NCBI RefSeq assembly: GCF_016903815.1
Contig: NZ_CP069973.1
From: Escherichia coli
GTDB taxonomy: Bacteria > Pseudomonadota > Gammaproteobacteria > Enterobacterales > Enterobacteriaceae
DNA: 64,000 nucleotides
Direction: 5' to 3' (one strand)
Shown: positions 7,539-16,449 of the stretch, in pieces
Layout of the letters: each line of letters starts with the position of its first letter
Position numbering within the stretch: the first letter of the stretch is position 1
Notes under the pieces: generated by a model
Told to the model about the DNA's origin: nothing
What the model saw: the letters and a program-made list of their open reading frames with translations, nothing else
Databases searched by the model: none
Program-made: the position numbers and the translations under genes

Positions 7539-8780
7539 TTAATCCTTAGCCTGCAACAGCGCGATAGTACGATTCATTTCGTTGAAGACGATATCGAGGC
7601 CTTCGTCAAAGCCCATCCCTGGTTTTACCAGCATACGCATGGGGCGAGCGGCAAGGGCGACGTGGACACAGGTGCGGGCACTGACATCAGTTTCATTGCA
7701 GGTGCCGCCCTGGTACGCTTCCATGTTGTGGCTGTTGCAATAAAGAACTGCATCGACGATGTTGTGAATACTGCCCAGATCCGGGGTTTTGATTTGCACC
7801 ATGTGGCAACTGGCGGCATCGGTGAAATCAACAATATCCTGGTAGGTGTTACACCATTCATCGGCCACTAGTTTCACGCCGGAACCGAGGCGCGTCAGCT
7901 CTTTGGTAATCGCGGTCAGCAGGCGAATTTGATCGGGCTTGTTACCGGCATCGACCGGACCTTCAATGTAGAGCGGCAGGCCTTGCGCTTCTTTTTCCAG
8001 GCTGGCGATGTATTGCGCACAGCGAAGCGGATCCATATCGAAGATCAGACCGATAGTGCCGTATACATCGATGTGCAGGGTAGGGTGGTAGCGTGCGCTG
8101 GTGCGCTTGCTCAGAATACGATCCGACAGCCAGCGGACATATTCGCGCAGTTTTTCACCTTTAAAGCCCAGTTTCTCTTCGACGTTATTAATCAGTGCAT
8201 GGGGCAGCACGTCGATGCCCTTAAGGATCATCTTATCGACGGCGATATATCGATCGTCGCCGCTCTGACCAAATAATGGAATGGATTCCGCCACGCGTGG
8301 CAACTGCCATTCATCACAGACCACTTCAGTTTTCAGACGGCCGGTTGCCAGCGCGGTAGCATCAAGCAGCGCCTGTGATAATCCGTAGCGCACGGCGGTA
8401 TGCAGCAAGTTGCCGTCAATACGCAATTTGTCGAAGAAACGGGCATTCGGCAGGAAAGTATCCACATCGCGGCCTACCAGTAATGGCTTGATATGGTCGT
8501 TGAGGAACGGAATAAAGTGCTCCGCGAGGAACAGTGGATCGCGACCACCTGCCCCGGAATACTGTACGGCAGCACAGTCACCTACGGCGACCGCGCCGTT
8601 TTCCAGAATCAACTGTACCGATACGCACTCCCCGGCCTGACGTACGGCGTTAAACCCCTGTGTTACTGGCTCCCCGGTATAAAAAAAACCGTCGTGACCC
8701 GCTCCGTTTTTTATCGCCTGCTGGTCATCGAAATAGAATGAGGAGTAGCCAGCGGTAAAAAGGGCCTGTTTTATTTTCAT
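7539..8780 (-). CDS. 3-methylaspartate ammonia-lyase (methylaspartase, enolase superfamily)
   Basis: 413 aa, classic methylaspartase length and enolase-superfamily architecture; immediately downstream of the glutamate mutase genes. Confidence 0.85.
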   Translation of the reverse strand: MKIKQALFTAGYSSFYFDDQQAIKNGAGHDGFFYTGEPVTQGFNAVRQAGECVSVQLILENGAVAVGDCAAVQYSGAGGRDPLFLAEHFIPFLNDHIKPLLVGRDVDTFLPNARFFDKLRIDGNLLHTAVRYGLSQALLDATALATGRLKTEVVCDEWQLPRVAESIPLFGQSGDDRYIAVDKMILKGIDVLPHALINNVEEKLGFKGEKLREYVRWLSDRILSKRTSARYHPTLHIDVYGTIGLIFDMDPLRCAQYIASLEKEAQGLPLYIEGPVDAGNKPDQIRLLTAITKELTRLGSGVKLVADEWCNTYQDIVDFTDAASCHMVQIKTPDLGSIHNIVDAVLYCNSHNMEAYQGGTCNETDVSARTCVHVALAARPMRMLVKPGMGFDEGLDIVFNEMNRTIALLQAKD

Positions 8781-10225
8781 TATGGTCTTCCTATTAATTT
8801 ACTGTGGGATACAGCATTGATGTCATCTACAACCATCTGGAATGTCGGTTGGCGTCCTTCAAAGCGTGCGCGTTCCGCAACGTAATCGTGGTGGAGGTCG
8901 AGAATATCTTTTGGCAATGGAACGGCTCCGGCTTCCAGTACGCGTATCGCGCCGGTGTTGTCACGGACCGGAAGAATTTTGCCCGCGTTACACGCGGCTG
9001 GTGCAAATGGCACATCCAGTACGCCCGCTTCAAATGCCAGCACCGTACCGCGCGCAATATCACCATTACCCAGTTCGAACACTTTATTCAGTACCGCGCG
9101 AACCTCGCTCTTAATCAGTTCAATTTCCAGTTCAACCGCAGGGCACGGCGGGAATTTCTGCTCATTGACCATGTTGAGCATCTGGCGGGAGGCTTTCAGC
9201 CCCTGAATGTTGGCAGCGGCAGTCGGGATTCCCCAGGCTTCGTGAGGGCTTTTGGTGATGACTTTGGTGGCACCAGACATCCCCGCGACGGCTGCACCCC
9301 AGGAGATAATGGCGAACGCTTTCGATTCGTCTTCCGGAAAGCCGCCCATCCACTGGTGAAATACGGTACTTAATTCATAGTCGGTATAGCCATAGTTCTG
9401 AAAGTATTCGTGTGCAAGTTCACGCAGAGACTGGATCGCCGCGACATCCTGCGTCAGGCTGCCGACCTGTCCATAACCAACGGTGATAGATTTCACACCC
9501 TGTTCCAGCGCCAGTAATCCTTCGATTATCGCGATAGAGTGCGAGATAAACGGCGGGATCAGCGTACCCGTTAGTGGGCCAAATGGTTCGCGGTTGATGC
9601 GGATCCCGTGTTCTTCATACATCCCCATTAAACGGTCGCAGTACTGCCAGTCGCGGATCGATTTTTCCAGCGTTACGCGCTTGGCATACGGAATATTGTA
9701 GGAAATGCCGCCGCCTTCATAACTGGTAAAGCCGCTGGCCATCGAGATTTCAGCCAGCAGACGCGCATCTGGCGTGCCGTGGCGGATCTGTAGCGGTTTT
9801 TGCAGAGTTTCGGTGAGGCGACGGCAAGCTGCGACGCCGTGGTTAACGACCGGTAAACCGTTCAGTTTAGAGGTTCCGGCTTCGATGGATTTTTTAATCC
9901 CTACAGCAGCTTCTTCGTACCGATTCAGACGGGTATATGCATCGATGGTGCTCGGCAGCAGATCGCACTCTTCTTGTAGTGTTTTCAGTAGTTCGATGTG
10001 TTCGTCCATCAGCGCCACGCCTGCGCGCGGTTGGCTAAGAGTTTTACCTTCCTTGTCTGCTTTCAGCAGGGCAAGAGAGAAGCGTTTATGCTCAGGAATG
10101 GTTTGTTGGTATTTAACGCCATCTTCAAAGTTTTCAACATCCTTGCCGGTTTCCCAGGTTTTCAATACCTGTTGCCGCTCGGTCATGAATTCGTTATGGG
10201 TTAATTTCTTATTTCGAAGTTCCAT
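8780..10225 (-). CDS. Glutamate mutase epsilon (large catalytic) subunit, MutE/GlmE
   Basis: 481 aa, TIM-barrel large subunit length; operon context with the S and L components. Confidence 0.85.
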   Translation of the reverse strand: MELRNKKLTHNEFMTERQQVLKTWETGKDVENFEDGVKYQQTIPEHKRFSLALLKADKEGKTLSQPRAGVALMDEHIELLKTLQEECDLLPSTIDAYTRLNRYEEAAVGIKKSIEAGTSKLNGLPVVNHGVAACRRLTETLQKPLQIRHGTPDARLLAEISMASGFTSYEGGGISYNIPYAKRVTLEKSIRDWQYCDRLMGMYEEHGIRINREPFGPLTGTLIPPFISHSIAIIEGLLALEQGVKSITVGYGQVGSLTQDVAAIQSLRELAHEYFQNYGYTDYELSTVFHQWMGGFPEDESKAFAIISWGAAVAGMSGATKVITKSPHEAWGIPTAAANIQGLKASRQMLNMVNEQKFPPCPAVELEIELIKSEVRAVLNKVFELGNGDIARGTVLAFEAGVLDVPFAPAACNAGKILPVRDNTGAIRVLEAGAVPLPKDILDLHHDYVAERARFEGRQPTFQMVVDDINAVSHSKLIGRP

Positions 10226-10243: not shown

Positions 10244-11632
10244 TTATAGGGTTAAGCATTGAATACTGGTGCGCGCGGCGGCCAGTGGATCGACTCTGGC
10301 GACGTTTGCCAGCAGTGGTAATAGCCCCCGGGAATCGCGGTAATATTCAAATTCGGTCGGTAAGAGAATGCGTTTACCGTCGTCGTTTAACTCGCGGTAT
10401 TTCAACCAGTGATGCATATCGAACTGACTGGCACGCGAGAGCCATCCGCCGGAACCCACGACTTTACGCACGGTTGTCAGGTCACGTCCCATCTGTAAAT
10501 CGACATTGCCGACGCAGGTGCAGACCTCTTTTTTGGTGCCCGCATGTCTTTCGGTGGCATAACCCACACACAGTCCGGCCAGGACGGTATCGAAATATTT
10601 TTCTTCTGCATTCGCGGGTAAGTAGTCGGGATGAGCGACTAGATGACGGAGGTAATGATAAAAAGCGTCCAGCTGTGCGGGTTGCTGAGCAAAATTCACA
10701 TTGACTAACTCTTTCGCACTTTCACCAACCACCATTGCCGAGACGCGCATTCCCAGATCGCCTTCCACCGTCCGTTTCACGAAGGGTTCCGGTACGCCAT
10801 GTAAAACAGTGTCGGGCGAGAGCGTGTTGGCACAGGCTGAATAGACATCGGTGGTTGCGCCGCCCATGTCGATCAGCATGAACTCCTTCCAGCTGTGATC
10901 GACGTTACTGATTGCCTTAACCAGTTCAAAGACCGTCCATGGTGTCGGCATTGGTTCTTCGCCTGTTTTATCAACAATGACATCCAGCCCTTTCCCTTTA
11001 ACGATGCGTTTAAGGAATATGTCGCAGATAGCCTGGCGTGCAGCTAAAGGGTTCGGATGGTCAAGATCGGGCAGAACGTTGTCGACGATGGTCAGGTCTT
11101 TATGCCCTAGGATCTCCTGCACCTCGTCCTGAATATCCCGGTTTCCGGCATAAATAATGGCGCAGTCGAGTTTGGATTCTGCCAGCACACGGGCGTTATT
11201 CAGGCCGTAGCTTTCTTCTCCGCCGTCGGTGCCGCCGGTGAACAAGAGAATATCGGGCTGCGTTTCTTCCAGTGCCTGGATATCACGGCGGTTCAGCTTG
11301 TAGGCGTAATATTGCGCAATTTTAGCCCCCGCAGAGTGAGCGGTTACTTTCGCGGTTTCCAGGGTGATAGAAGGCACCAATCCCATTGCGGCAACCGCCA
11401 GCCCACCTTTGGCAGAGGAGGAATACTTCAATGTAACCTCACCGCTGTTAAACAGGGGGAGGGCATTATCTACGTTTAACACCAGGTTCAGGCTGGAGAA
11501 AAACCCCTTCGCCAGATGATGGGTGGTGGTTGGGGTCAGTACGTGGTTAACCAACGTTAACGCGTCCCCCTCCCGGGCGAAGAGGGCTGCTTTGGTCCAC
11601 GTCGAACCAATATCGACAGAGACGATTTGCAT
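10244..11632 (-). CDS. Glutamate mutase L component (MutL/GlmL, reactivating chaperone-like ATPase)
   Basis: 462 aa ORF between the S and E subunits, the typical glmS-glmL-glmE order; ASKHA-like N-terminus ([18 protein letters not shown]). Confidence 0.8.
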   Translation of the reverse strand: MQIVSVDIGSTWTKAALFAREGDALTLVNHVLTPTTTHHLAKGFFSSLNLVLNVDNALPLFNSGEVTLKYSSSAKGGLAVAAMGLVPSITLETAKVTAHSAGAKIAQYYAYKLNRRDIQALEETQPDILLFTGGTDGGEESYGLNNARVLAESKLDCAIIYAGNRDIQDEVQEILGHKDLTIVDNVLPDLDHPNPLAARQAICDIFLKRIVKGKGLDVIVDKTGEEPMPTPWTVFELVKAISNVDHSWKEFMLIDMGGATTDVYSACANTLSPDTVLHGVPEPFVKRTVEGDLGMRVSAMVVGESAKELVNVNFAQQPAQLDAFYHYLRHLVAHPDYLPANAEEKYFDTVLAGLCVGYATERHAGTKKEVCTCVGNVDLQMGRDLTTVRKVVGSGGWLSRASQFDMHHWLKYRELNDDGKRILLPTEFEYYRDSRGLLPLLANVARVDPLAAARTSIQCLTL

Positions 11633-12081
11633 CAGATTGCCTCTTCAAGAATGCGAGTATCAACGTTATGACGTTGGTTGATATCGTGGGCCATCAGCTG
11701 ACAAACATCTTCTAAGTCATGACTTGGGGAAAAGACGCGATCAAATCCCATCTCTTTGAACTTGGTTTCCACGTCAGCGAAGTCATGTTTTCCGACCACC
11801 AGGTTACCGCCCACATAGAGCAGGATGTTACCCAGCCCACGCTCGATGCAGCGTTCGCGCATGCCCAGACAATCGATATCGCCATGCCCATAGATAGAGG
11901 AGACGACAATCGCGTCAGCACCAGTTTCAATGGCAGCATCAATATATTCGTCCTGGCTGACCATTACGCCCAGATTAATAACTCTGAAGTCATGGTTGCT
12001 AAAAACGCGGTCCAGAACTTTATTGCCTACTGCATGGCAGTCCGCGCCAATAACGCCAATCACAAGTGTTGCTTTCTTCAT
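11632..12081 (-). CDS. Glutamate mutase sigma (B12-binding) subunit, MutS/GlmS
   Basis: ORF 11632-12144; cobalamin-binding DxHxxG motif ([11 protein letters not shown]). Start trimmed to ATG 12081 ([12 protein letters not shown]), preceded by AAGGA, giving 149 aa. Confidence 0.8.
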
Positions 12082-12627
12082 GGGTAATCCTTTGTAAGAC
12101 AGAGAGTAAAATAAGTTACACACGTCGTATTTATGGCCGCTCATAACGGCACAGGTTTAATATCACAGGAGTGTCTTTATCTGACCGTAATGTTGCAATT
12201 GATCTATTTTCAAAATGTCTTTCGGGAAATGATTGTTTAAAGTGTGTTTTCAAATTCTCATTTTAATTCAGTGTGTTATGTCAACTAATGTCATGAATGT
12301 TAAATTTTTAAAATTAACTTGATTTGATGTATTGAGATAATTGTGATCAACTTCTAATTTGCATTTTTGTGACGTGGCTTTAGCCATGAGTAAATGCATT
12401 TCATAAAAGTTAAGTCGAATTTCACTGCAATTCATCTCTGCTTAATGTAAAAATAATGTTGAAAATAACAAATAATTAATGATTCATGCGAATTATGACC
12501 TTTGTTAGCTCTTTTGATTTTTCGTAAAAAAGAAAAGTACATGAAGGTGCTACCAGTACGAGTAACGTTAATCAAAAGTTTTATTACGTCTGGCAATAAC
12601 GCAGGCCATTTTCGCGACTGGGTGGAT

Positions 12628-13050
12628 TTAATCAGTATAATCCTCATACAATAGGTCAGGATTTACTGAACCGTTAACGGGGATTTGGTGTTGAAATTTA
12701 GAAATGGCGGAGTCAATTAATGAAGACAATATCGGAAAAATGACAGTGTCAGAATTAATTTCAATTAATCCTTCTCGTTGTTGACCAAAAAAGATATTTA
12801 TCTTGATTTCATTTGTACTACGGCAATCAATATGCAGTAATTTTTGATCGCTGAGATTTTCTGTTTCATAAATGTTTTTGGCGATAGTCGGATGTATTGA
12901 TGCCAGACATCTGCTCAGATAAGCCAGATCCTTTAGGGAACACCCCGCTGAGTAGAGGATGTCAGAGAATTTTTGTGTGTCAACTGTTGTCTCTGAAGCG
13001 TATGTTGCATTGACAGGAAGGGTGTTGAAAGAGATTTGAGATGGGATCAT
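12628..13050 (-). CDS. Hypothetical protein, no recognisable family (orphan, AT-rich)
   Basis: 140 aa ORF in a strongly AT-rich block, co-directional with and 80 bp downstream of the 314-aa ORF; no motif I can assign. Confidence 0.5.
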   Translation of the reverse strand: MIPSQISFNTLPVNATYASETTVDTQKFSDILYSAGCSLKDLAYLSRCLASIHPTIAKNIYETENLSDQKLLHIDCRSTNEIKINIFFGQQREGLIEINSDTVIFPILSSLIDSAISKFQHQIPVNGSVNPDLLYEDYTD

Positions 13051-13130
13051 TATTTAAATCTTTCCGTGAGTAATAAAAATTAATCCCCGGGCATTGTTTG
13101 GCAATATTTGCCACAGGGAATATATAAAAA

Positions 13131-14075
13131 TTAAAGTATTTGATTGGCATCGGTTAACTGATCAATAACCAGTGCCAGATTGGTAAACATTTTGAAAAAG
13201 CGATACTGGCTCGGAATATCTCTTTCAAAGACGAAACATTCAATGTCATTGTTTGAAAAATAAAGGACTAGTGTTGCTGATTCGTCAGGAAAAATATGGA
13301 AATATATCTGGTTACCAGAAGGAGGATAGTCCAGAAGAAGGGTATCTTTGCCCGTCACATACCTGTTGTGGTCGTGGATGCTGCGCTCACACTTCATCAG
13401 AGGTGTCATGATACTCATGTATTCATCTGATGTTAATATATTAAAATCACCATCCATTTTAAAGAAACGATAAAGTAACAGTACATCCTCTTGCGTAACC
13501 GGTTCGTTTGTTTTTAGAGGGAAATAAGTGGGAACCAGAAGATGAGGTTCTAATCTATTTTGTTGAGCGCTATAACTAAATTTGAACATAAATTCCGGAT
13601 CGCTCATCAATTGAGCGACATAATTATGCCTGGCTTCAAAAATTTTAACTTTTATCAGGTTAAATAAGTCTGTTTCGTCATCCTGTATTAAAAGACATTG
13701 ACCATAGCAGCCAGGCTTTTTTTCATTATAAGCAGAAACGGTTATTCTGTCAGGAGTGTCAACGTTATATCCAAAAGCCAGATAGTGACCTTCCTCATCG
13801 AGATTTGTTTCCAGGTTATTTAAATTCATCACATGAAGTGTTTGCAATGCTGATTCAATGAGCTGTTGACTCTCTGAGGTAAATGTTTCGCGCTGCGTTG
13901 TATAAAGTGTATCGATTCCAACGACTATCCGATGTGGATCAAGGATGGCGGCAATCATCTTTATTACCTGCACAGTCATGGGTGATGTCATTGATTCTTT
14001 ATCTGTTTTTAGAGGATCATTAGATGGCCAACCTGAGAAGCGATTGACAGCAGAACTGATATTATCAGGACTCAT
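13131..14075 (-). CDS. Hypothetical protein, no recognisable family (orphan, AT-rich)
   Basis: 314 aa ORF, uninterrupted, in AT-rich DNA between the glutamate operon and the cydA regulatory region; codon usage atypical for the E. coli core. Confidence 0.55.
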   Translation of the reverse strand: MSPDNISSAVNRFSGWPSNDPLKTDKESMTSPMTVQVIKMIAAILDPHRIVVGIDTLYTTQRETFTSESQQLIESALQTLHVMNLNNLETNLDEEGHYLAFGYNVDTPDRITVSAYNEKKPGCYGQCLLIQDDETDLFNLIKVKIFEARHNYVAQLMSDPEFMFKFSYSAQQNRLEPHLLVPTYFPLKTNEPVTQEDVLLLYRFFKMDGDFNILTSDEYMSIMTPLMKCERSIHDHNRYVTGKDTLLLDYPPSGNQIYFHIFPDESATLVLYFSNNDIECFVFERDIPSQYRFFKMFTNLALVIDQLTDANQIL

Positions 14076-14880
14076 AGCAGCAACCTCATTGTAATCAAGC
14101 GAGGCGCTGAGCGTACTCGGCTATAGAAAAACTAACTTGCAAAAATCGCTCATTTTTCATTTATCAGGCGAAAGTGGTCTCTGTTCACTCAGAAACAATC
14201 ACTCCCGCTAAGTCATACCTGTTTCATCGATACATTTAAGTGATTATTACTAATGAAACAATAACATAACGGGCTTACGGCCGGTGCTCATAAAGGCAAC
14301 AATCAATTAACTTTGATAAAAATATGTTATGTAAAATAGCAACAAATTGGCTAATCTAATCAATTGGTATTATAAAAAGTGGATAGGGCGGTTCTGTTAA
14401 ATAAAACACTGGTTTTTTATCTATACCTTTTCATTGTAATAATTGTGTTGCATAAATATTTCACAATAAATTAACAATAAAATCACCAATGATCTATGGT
14501 TTATACATAATTAACATATTTGGTTGGTTTTGATATAAATCAATTTTTAATTCTTGAAAAAAATCTGCAAAACACGATAAATTGTCGTAGATCAAATTGG
14601 TGAGATCGTGACAATTTCGCTATAAATTGATCACTGTCGAAAAATGCAAATTTGCTCAATAAAAACCTGTTTATTGTAAGGATTTTGCGGCGTAATATAA
14701 TTACGGGATCAATTTGGTTTATTCATTAACATATTTGTAACTTTTTTATCATTGTCTTTTCCTCTTTTGATGAAATGGCAACGATAGAGGCGAGCAAATA
14801 ATTTTGTATTGGGGCATGCGTGTGACCCTTTCTAACGGGGTTCACTCTCGGAGTCTTCATGCGATGAGCAAGGAGTCATG
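14076..14880 (+). promoter_or_regulatory. Long AT-rich cydA upstream control region (multiple promoters, ArcA/FNR/H-NS regulated in K-12)
   Basis: About 800 bp non-coding AT-rich DNA directly upstream of cydA, as expected for the cydAB control region; individual sites not resolved by eye. Confidence 0.6.
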
Positions 14881-16449
14881 ATGTTAGATATAGTCGAACT
14901 GTCGCGCTTACAGTTTGCCTTGACCGCGATGTACCACTTCCTTTTTGTGCCACTGACGCTCGGTATGGCGTTCCTGCTGGCCATTATGGAAACGGTCTAC
15001 GTCCTTTCCGGCAAACAGATTTATAAAGATATGACCAAGTTCTGGGGCAAGTTGTTTGGTATCAACTTCGCTCTGGGTGTGGCTACCGGTCTGACTATGG
15101 AGTTCCAGTTCGGGACTAACTGGTCTTACTATTCCCACTATGTAGGGGATATCTTCGGTGCGCCGCTGGCAATCGAAGGTCTAATGGCCTTCTTCCTCGA
15201 ATCCACCTTTGTAGGTCTGTTCTTCTTCGGTTGGGATCGTCTGGGTAAAGTTCAGCATATGTGTGTCACTTGGCTGGTGGCGCTCGGTTCAAACCTGTCC
15301 GCACTGTGGATTCTGGTTGCGAACGGCTGGATGCAAAACCCAATCGCGTCCGATTTCAACTTTGAAACTATGCGTATGGAGATGGTGAGCTTCTCCGAGC
15401 TGGTGCTTAACCCGGTTGCTCAGGTGAAATTCGTTCACACTGTAGCGTCTGGTTATGTGACTGGCGCGATGTTCATCCTCGGTATCAGCGCATGGTATAT
15501 GCTGAAAGGTCGTGACTTCGCCTTCGCTAAACGCTCCTTTGCTATCGCTGCCAGCTTCGGTATGGCTGCCGTTCTGTCTGTTATTGTTCTGGGTGATGAA
15601 TCTGGTTACGAAATGGGCGACGTGCAGAAAACCAAACTGGCTGCTATTGAAGCCGAGTGGGAAACGCAACCTGCGCCTGCTGCCTTTACTCTGTTCGGCA
15701 TTCCTGATCAGGAAGAGGAGACGAACAAATTTGCGATCCAGATCCCTTACGCGCTGGGCATCATTGCAACGCGTTCCGTGGATACTCCAGTTATCGGCCT
15801 GAAAGAACTGATGGTGCAGCATGAAGAACGCATTCGTAACGGGATGAAGGCGTACTCTCTGCTCGAACAACTGCGTTCTGGTTCTACCGACCAGGCGGTT
15901 CGTGACCAGTTCAATAGCATGAAGAAAGACCTCGGTTACGGTCTGCTGCTGAAACGCTATACGCCAAACGTGGCTGATGCGACTGAAGCGCAGATTCAAC
16001 AGGCAACCAAAGACTCCATTCCGCGTGTAGCGCCGCTGTACTTCGCGTTCCGTATCATGGTGGCGTGTGGCTTCCTGCTGCTGGCAATCATCGCGCTCTC
16101 TTTCTGGAGTGTCATCCGCAACCGCATTGGCGAGAAAAAATGGCTGCTGCGCGCCGCGCTGTACGGTATTCCGCTGCCGTGGATTGCTGTAGAAGCGGGC
16201 TGGTTCGTGGCTGAATATGGCCGCCAACCGTGGGCTATCGGTGAAGTGCTGCCGACAGCTGTGGCGAACTCGTCACTGACCGCAGGCGATCTCATCTTCT
16301 CAATGGTGCTGATTTGCGGCCTGTATACCCTGTTCCTGGTGGCAGAATTGTTCTTAATGTTCAAGTTTGCACGCCTCGGCCCAAGCAGCCTGAAAACCGG
16401 TCGCTATCACTTTGAGCAGTCTTCCACGACTACTCAGCCGGCACGCTAA
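14881..16449 (+). CDS. cydA: Cytochrome bd-I ubiquinol oxidase subunit I
   Basis: Translation [28 protein letters not shown]... matches CydA; ORF track starts one Met earlier (14878). Confidence 0.97.

Follow-up and report, generated by a model that had tools for sequence, protein, structure and literature searches.

In a 64,000-nucleotide (nt) stretch of Escherichia coli DNA (contig NZ_CP069973.1 of assembly GCF_016903815.1, hereafter the window), we analyzed a pair of open reading frames (ORFs) lying next to cydA, namely, gene A (positions 13131 to 14075; 314 amino acids [aa]) and gene B (12628 to 13050; 140 aa). On balance, and with moderate confidence, we interpret A and B as an old, vertically inherited operon of ORFans (i.e., taxonomically restricted genes) that is confined to Escherichia and is not a mobile system. 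What is new here is an unnamed ORFan protein family; we saw no sign of a new type of system. A preliminary description of the window had put the pair forward as a candidate for a genuinely undescribed system, and we find that the family is indeed undescribed but that its portrayal as a mobile cargo system is unsupported.

The window is chromosomal and 100% identical to E. coli strain 50579417. Both ORFs were found exactly where the preliminary description had placed them, 80 bp apart. They are codirectional on the minus strand, with A divergent from cydA, and their neighbors are glmS and glmL on one side and cydABX-tol-pal on the other. As that description had also stated, the block is more AT-rich than its surroundings and compositionally foreign: the guanine-plus-cytosine (GC) profile gave values of 0.27 to 0.41 over positions ~12000 to 14999, versus 0.47 to 0.57 on either flank, and GC content at third codon positions (GC3) was 0.35 for A and 0.34 for B, compared with 0.51 for glmS and 0.62 for cydA. 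These values (GC, 0.27 to 0.41; GC3, 0.34 to 0.35) show the low GC content of xenogeneic DNA silenced by H-NS, so that, judged by composition, H-NS silencing of A-B is plausible.

Our comparisons revealed that A and B are genuine genes that encode proteins and experience moderate purifying selection, and the possibility that they are spurious ORFs, which the preliminary description had raised, can be set aside. More specifically, the ratios of nonsynonymous to synonymous substitution rates (dN/dS) of the two genes lay between 0.17 and 0.45 (0.34 to 0.45 for A among this strain, EDL933, the AST85 allele, and E. albertii, significantly below 1; 0.17 to 0.40 for B), their coding sequences were free of indels, and both the start and the leader of A were conserved. 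The proportion of nonsynonymous differences (pN) in A was significantly lower than that of synonymous differences (pS), with Fisher p values of 1e-5 to 6e-9 versus neutrality. For the flanking genes, dN/dS was 0.00 to 0.26. Likewise, 17 A alleles from E. coli and E. albertii aligned over 314 columns with zero indels, even at 23% nucleotide divergence, and the coding sequences of A and B were gap-free between strains, whereas the spacers carried indels. Translation of A is preceded by a Shine-Dalgarno sequence (GAGG) 9 nt upstream of its ATG. Constraint on B was unevenly distributed along the protein: the core (residues 38 to 117) was strongly constrained (pN/pS, 0.027/0.224; ratio, 0.12), and the C-terminal tail (residues 118 to 140) was hypervariable, with a pN of 0.225 versus a pS of 0.111.

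Both products are acidic and predicted to be soluble (pI, 4.7 for A and 4.65 for B). Neither has a transmembrane segment or signal peptide, the maximum Kyte-Doolittle mean over 19 residues being 1.25 to 1.33. In RefSeq, A is WP_001305591.1 in this strain and WP_001310136.1 in O157:H7 EDL933, and B is WP_000613113.1 in this strain; each of these is annotated as a hypothetical protein, as are A and B in every source of the collection of roughly 15 billion predicted proteins that we consulted. Derivation of B from a domain of A as a paralogue was considered and found unsupported (BLASTP E = 2.3; hhalign probability, 1.2%).

The age of the arrangement can be read from E. albertii. In this species, A and cydA are likewise divergent, with A ~805 bp upstream, the same distance as in E. 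coli, and A is intact at 314 aa in many strains (a cluster of 131 members, mostly 314 aa). The glm cluster is missing from the E. albertii locus. Downstream of A by ~150 bp, where B would otherwise lie, we detected a remnant, FNILHSLWHSNDDLTYLNECLAPLHPTLTKSI, comprising 31 codons that match B residues 30 to 60 and are bounded by stop codons on both sides. As A stands beside cydA and is accompanied by this remnant of B, the A-B arrangement predates the split between E. coli and E. albertii. To judge from the remnant, B has been dead in E. albertii for long enough to be nearly erased, with A remaining open throughout. Within E. albertii, synonymous divergence (dS) of A was 0.005 to 0.016, versus 0.047 to 0.056 for the adjacent cydA, which is the reverse of the pattern in E. 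coli; the low dS of A could stem from recombination at A or from a sweep in the recent past.

Loss and decay of the module have occurred repeatedly. The whole module was lost or pseudogenized in a cryptic Escherichia clade, in Shigella dysenteriae, and in ~79% of the complete genomes of E. coli, and an intact B was found in E. coli only, B being truncated in S. dysenteriae. In Escherichia sp. MOD1-EC7003, a member of the cryptic clade, A and B are both wrecked by frameshifts and insertions. The decayed genes contain two elements of ~130 nt that resemble enterobacterial repetitive intergenic consensus/intergenic repeat units (ERIC/IRU), located at 8345 to 8474 and 9084 to 9213 of the locus record, in inverted orientation and 86% complementary. 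One of the two carries an exact 22-nt match to what we take to be the ERIC core sequence. Taken together, repeated loss or decay and ancient synteny indicate an old, conditionally useful resident and not recent cargo.

The A-B module is not mobile and occupies a single fixed chromosomal site. A, B, and the glmS-glmL segment were each present in 1135 of the 5426 complete E. coli genomes, A-B having a median of one copy per genome and a chromosomal location in all places but one. Carriers include O157:H7, O145, SMS-3-5, and PCN033; the module is missing from K-12, HS, and LF82. The locus of GCA_002230845.1 was left out, because its fragmented genes suggest poor assembly. A six-frame search of 50,697 phage records detected neither A nor B, and no phage ancestry of the pair could be demonstrated among these records. 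In the plasmid collection, matches were confined to three records of 0.7 to 4.9 Mb, which look like chromosomal sequence labeled as plasmid. As potential signs of a mobile element, flanking repeats amounted to just short imperfect matches. The view of the pair as recently acquired cargo traveling together is thus unsupported: A and B sit at one locus in single copy, off phages and true plasmids, and their synteny with cydA is older than the divergence of E. albertii. Independently of this, we observed a 24-nt imperfect inverted repeat (12215 to 12238 and 14193 to 14216; 75% complementary) that brackets the module and is probably due to chance in AT-rich DNA.

The narrow distribution of the family was consistent across searches. 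Searches of Pfam, NCBIfam, PADLOC, PHROGs, and the PDB with single sequences and profiles gave nothing above noise for A or B, in agreement with the earlier statement that the proteins show no known family, transmembrane segment, or signal peptide. In PADLOC-DB, 0 families matched either protein at E<=1. For A, a word-indexed homology search returned 5 clusters, and for B it returned 42; every cluster with a named source was from Escherichia or Shigella. An exhaustive hmmsearch of 1.84 billion representative proteins with the A profile recovered only short fragments of A itself, and no homologue of A or B outside the genus was found among the roughly 15 billion predicted proteins. In a scan of species representatives, A was present only in E. 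albertii, Escherichia sp. MOD1-EC7003, and two contigs of metagenome-assembled genomes (MAGs) assigned to other genera. These MAGs, GTDB species representatives labeled "Collinsella sp." and "Citrobacter sp.," have contigs that encode A with 99 to 100% amino acid identity to this locus, which most likely reflects binning contamination. Apart from the two MAG contigs, all matches therefore fell within Escherichia and Shigella, as is characteristic of an ORFan.

Several features of the flanking DNA bear on how the pair may be expressed. The spacer between A and B (13051 to 13130, minus strand; 80 bp) is probably intraoperonic and shows the lowest conservation within the block; compared with strain AST85, it showed 80% identity with 3 gap columns. 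No terminator-like site was found in this spacer, which makes cotranscription of A and B likely. Upstream of A, ~80 nt (14073 to 14152) were 88 to 93% identical between E. coli and E. albertii, whereas positions 14153 to 14270 were 55 to 72% identical and the A coding sequence averaged ~77%. Synonymous divergence was also low in A codons 1 to 45 (13941 to 14075), with a pS of 0.19 versus 0.33 to 0.53 elsewhere in A. The conserved upstream patch is absent from strains without A, in which common DNA begins at 14240, indicating that the patch serves A and not cydA. On these grounds, we infer that the A-proximal patch (14076 to 14152, minus strand) is the promoter/operator and leader of A; together with the conserved 5′ end of the coding sequence, it may act as an operator or a leader. 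RNA folding of the conserved leader gave no excess stability (z = -0.19) and no covariation, Rfam had no match, and scans for consensus promoters and terminators yielded no more sites than in shuffled sequences. One predicted CCUC/GAGG pairing in the leader would occlude the Shine-Dalgarno sequence.

Beyond the patch, variable DNA specific to the A haplotype (14153 to 14239) lies between the leader of A and the shared cydA control region, and it is not common to LF82 or K-12-type strains. The upstream control region of cydAB (14240 to 14880, plus strand) falls inside the coordinates given in the preliminary description and is not part of the module. Its entire length of ~640 bp is common to LF82-type strains, which lack A and B (~91% identity); the proximal ~375 bp (14505 to 14880) are common to K-12/HS-type strains, likewise lacking A and B (~82% identity); and positions 14511 to 14880 are 90 to 100% identical between this strain and E. 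albertii. Thus, of the long AT-rich leaders claimed earlier, the conserved patch in front of A stands, but most of the remainder is cydAB control DNA that also occurs, as 14240 to 14880, in strains without A and B. This control region differs strongly among E. coli lineages, with the cydA coding sequence being 98 to 99% identical in the carrier strains compared.

On the other side, the gap between B and glmS (12082 to 12627, minus strand) is AT-rich (~28% GC), noncoding, and presumably the upstream region of the glmS operon. It carries indels between strains, its small ORFs lack an open counterpart in the corresponding frame of other strains (the longest frames without a stop vary from strain to strain), and it has no match in Rfam. 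The earlier left edge of the block, 12145, follows the longest glmS ORF (11632 to 12144; 170 aa), but the RefSeq start of glmS at 12081 (150 aa, MKKATL...) puts the gap at 12082 to 12627.

As A-B adjoins the methylaspartate cluster for glutamate fermentation, we compared the two. The cluster (LysR-cobO-fumD-gltP-DUF4387-AtuA/DUF1446-mal-glmE-glmL-glmS) has been described as running from LysR to glmS, with fumD corresponding to ECs0757 and with A and B not included, and as occurring in Klebsiella, Citrobacter, Salmonella, Yersinia, and other genera (PMC4682846). In E. coli, it is perfectly codistributed with A-B (1135 genomes each). In contrast, its GC content is ~0.5 versus 0.37 to 0.38 for A-B, it is present in many genera without A or B, and E. 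albertii has A at a locus that lacks the cluster; we observed no cross-genus cotravel of A with it. Divergence is also decoupled, in that relative to AST85 the cluster gene glmS was 99.3% identical and B was 89.6% identical. Since A is confined to Escherichia while the cluster spans genera, A and B are not part of the methylaspartate island. The remaining identities to AST85 were 98.3% for cydA, 92.5% for A, and 83.5% for the segment upstream of A, so that divergence is confined to the AT-rich block (12082 to 14239), indicative of recombination breakpoints at the block edges. The AST85-type divergent haplotype is an old allele found in just a few dozen genomes.

More generally, the sucD-cydA gap proved to be a replacement hot spot in the strains compared. 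It contains mngRAB with an insertion sequence (IS1) in HS, a gene for a tetratricopeptide repeat (TPR) protein in LF82, the LysR-cobO-fumD...glmS methylaspartate cluster plus B and A in this strain, and a 258-aa outer membrane protein (OMP)-like gene plus A in E. albertii. In some E. albertii strains, the OMP-like gene is split or disrupted by IS66.

The interpretation that we favor can be outlined as follows. The A-B DNA would have arrived in a single ancient acquisition from an AT-rich donor not yet sampled, and H-NS-type proteins would bind and silence it, as with the cydA control DNA next to it. Expression of the genes would be limited to particular conditions and driven from the conserved leader of A. 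Their products would be two soluble, acidic, nonmembrane alpha/beta proteins which, having no recognizable catalytic or nucleotide-binding motifs, most likely bind other macromolecules, with A as an autonomous core and B as a dispensable accessory partner.

Several observations weigh against this interpretation. A dN/dS of ~0.4 is high, meaning that constraint is just moderate. A is frameshifted in the type strain of E. albertii, and within that species substitutions in A are too few to show ongoing selection (omega, 0.4 to 0.8; not significant). A nonenzymatic binding protein is a mere default from absent motifs. The AlphaFold models of A and B were unusable, with predicted local distance difference test (pLDDT) scores of 43.2 and 40.6, respectively; at such low values (41 to 43) no fold can be assigned to either protein, which leaves room for a cryptic enzyme fold. 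Finally, a literature search by Sakai and EDL933 locus tags and by RefSeq and UniProt accessions returned no paper naming A or B in the library searched.

Alternative explanations were weighed against the same evidence. One proposes that a type III secretion system (T3SS), either E. coli T3SS 2 (ETT2) or that of the locus of enterocyte effacement (LEE), exports A and perhaps also B, with both proteins effector-like or with A as an effector and B as a small, acidic, chaperone-like partner. The genes would then form a nonphage AT-rich islet comparable to the EspL/EspR/EspX/EspY genes of E. coli. We consider this unlikely. The first 25 to 30 residues of A and B are composed of S/T/P/N/Q to 48 to 54%, versus 29 to 30% in the rest (binomial p ~0.01 to 0.02 each), but this bias is weak and also typical of disordered tails. 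Both proteins lack a Sec signal and a transmembrane segment, and B, at 140 aa and a pI of 4.65, is chaperone-sized, acidic, and encoded directly downstream of A; however, neither protein resembles an effector or a CesT/SycE-type chaperone in Pfam, even at E<=10, or in the PDB, and B was lost in E. albertii, a T3SS-positive species, while A persists. The models predict alpha...beta-beta-beta-alpha units, one in B and two in A, yet this pattern rests on models with a pLDDT of ~40, in which B is also predicted to begin with a 24-residue polar tail and not with a helix. Carriers include O157:H7 and E. albertii, so that T3SS-bearing pathogens are among the carrier lineages, but neither T3SS genes nor prophages adjoin A-B.

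A wider alternative holds that A founds an unrecognized family with an activity directed at the host or at competitors, and to all of its versions taken jointly we likewise assign a low probability. In one version, A may represent a new, Escherichia-confined family of T3SS (ETT2/LEE) substrates with B as a coevolving partner; in another, A-B may be a nuclease-like toxin or defense pair too divergent for current models. A further reading concerns origin: A and B may have arisen de novo, in an ancestor of Escherichia, within the AT-rich DNA between sucD and cydA. Inspection by eye for motifs of PD-(D/E)XK nucleases yielded candidates that are not conserved in A, and the motif in B is short and could be due to chance; these motifs were rejected as evidence.

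Alternatively, A and B could be functionless relics hitchhiking between the glm cluster and cydA, which we regard as quite improbable. Consistent with relics are the absence of the pair from ~79% of complete E. coli genomes, the interruption of both genes in Escherichia sp. MOD1-EC7003 by frameshifts and ERIC-like elements, the truncation of B in S. dysenteriae, the frameshift of A in the E. albertii type strain, and the relatively high dN/dS. In contrast, relics would not be expected to show the significant deficit of nonsynonymous differences (p, 1e-5 to 6e-9), a 945-nt AT-rich ORF kept open without one indel at 23% nucleotide divergence, a core of B with a pN/pS of 0.12, or the conserved patch upstream of A.

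The preliminary description had also suggested a toxin/immunity pair. Under this reading, A would be the toxin and B its cognate antitoxin or immunity protein, in a toxin-antitoxin (TA) module or a polymorphic-toxin/immunity pair. Such an arrangement would fit the order of a larger gene followed 80 bp downstream by a small acidic gene on the same strand, the AT-rich block, and the fast evolution of A and B, including the C-terminal tail of B with a pN greater than its pS. We nevertheless deem it very unlikely. E. albertii keeps an intact A beside a stop-riddled remnant of B, and survival of A without B makes an obligate toxin/antitoxin or immunity relation improbable. Moreover, no toxin, antitoxin, immunity, or trafficking domain was detected in A or B in Pfam, NCBIfam, or PADLOC, vgrG, hcp, cdiB, and rhs are missing from the neighborhood, the module is immobile, single copy, and at a fixed locus, and A, at 314 aa, is atypical for type II toxins. 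A novel two-gene antiphage defense system is likewise very unlikely, as there is no match to a PADLOC model, metabolic and respiratory genes rather than a defense island flank A-B, and the distribution is strictly vertical by lineage, not patchy or mobile. An effector/chaperone or defense identity, as entertained in the preliminary description, thus stays unsupported speculation.

About one-fifth of complete E. coli genomes carry the pair, O157:H7 among them, and A is additionally present in E. albertii. Should A turn out to act as a regulator or as a secreted effector, it would be a lineage marker that also plays a part in how these pathogens live; otherwise, A-B offers a clean case of an old ORFan operon with moderate constraint and repeated loss. 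In practical terms, the module constitutes a well-delimited target for further study.

Finally, we compared A-B with known systems. With type II TA or toxin-immunity pairs, it shares two adjacent, codirectional genes of which the downstream one encodes the smaller, acidic protein, but A-B is immobile and single copy, matches no such family, and its "toxin" survives the loss of the partner. B recalls the class I T3SS chaperones (CesT/SycE) in its length of ~140 aa, its pI of ~4.6, and its position beside a larger gene; it differs from them in lacking a Pfam match (E<=10), in its loss from E. albertii while A persists, and, according to low-confidence models, in a long polar N-terminal tail and a single predicted beta-beta-beta-alpha unit. 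Nonphage T3SS effector islets of E. coli, comprising the EspL, EspR, EspX, and EspY families, were reportedly described by Tobe et al. in 2006. Members of these families have recognizable domains and homologues in Salmonella or Shigella. A-B resembles the Esp islets in being small, AT-rich, chromosomal, and fixed in position and in encoding soluble proteins with polar, S/T/P/N-rich N termini, whereas A and B have no recognizable homologues or domains. The closest likeness in overall character is to the AT-rich, fast-evolving ORFans of E. coli, of which Daubin and Ochman are said to have given an account in 2004: A and B share with these their low GC and GC3, their restriction to a narrow clade, an elevated dN/dS that is still below 1, and their lineage-specific presence and absence. 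They differ from them in that A, at 314 aa, is long for an ORFan, and in that the A-B pair is older than most and is preceded by a conserved leader.

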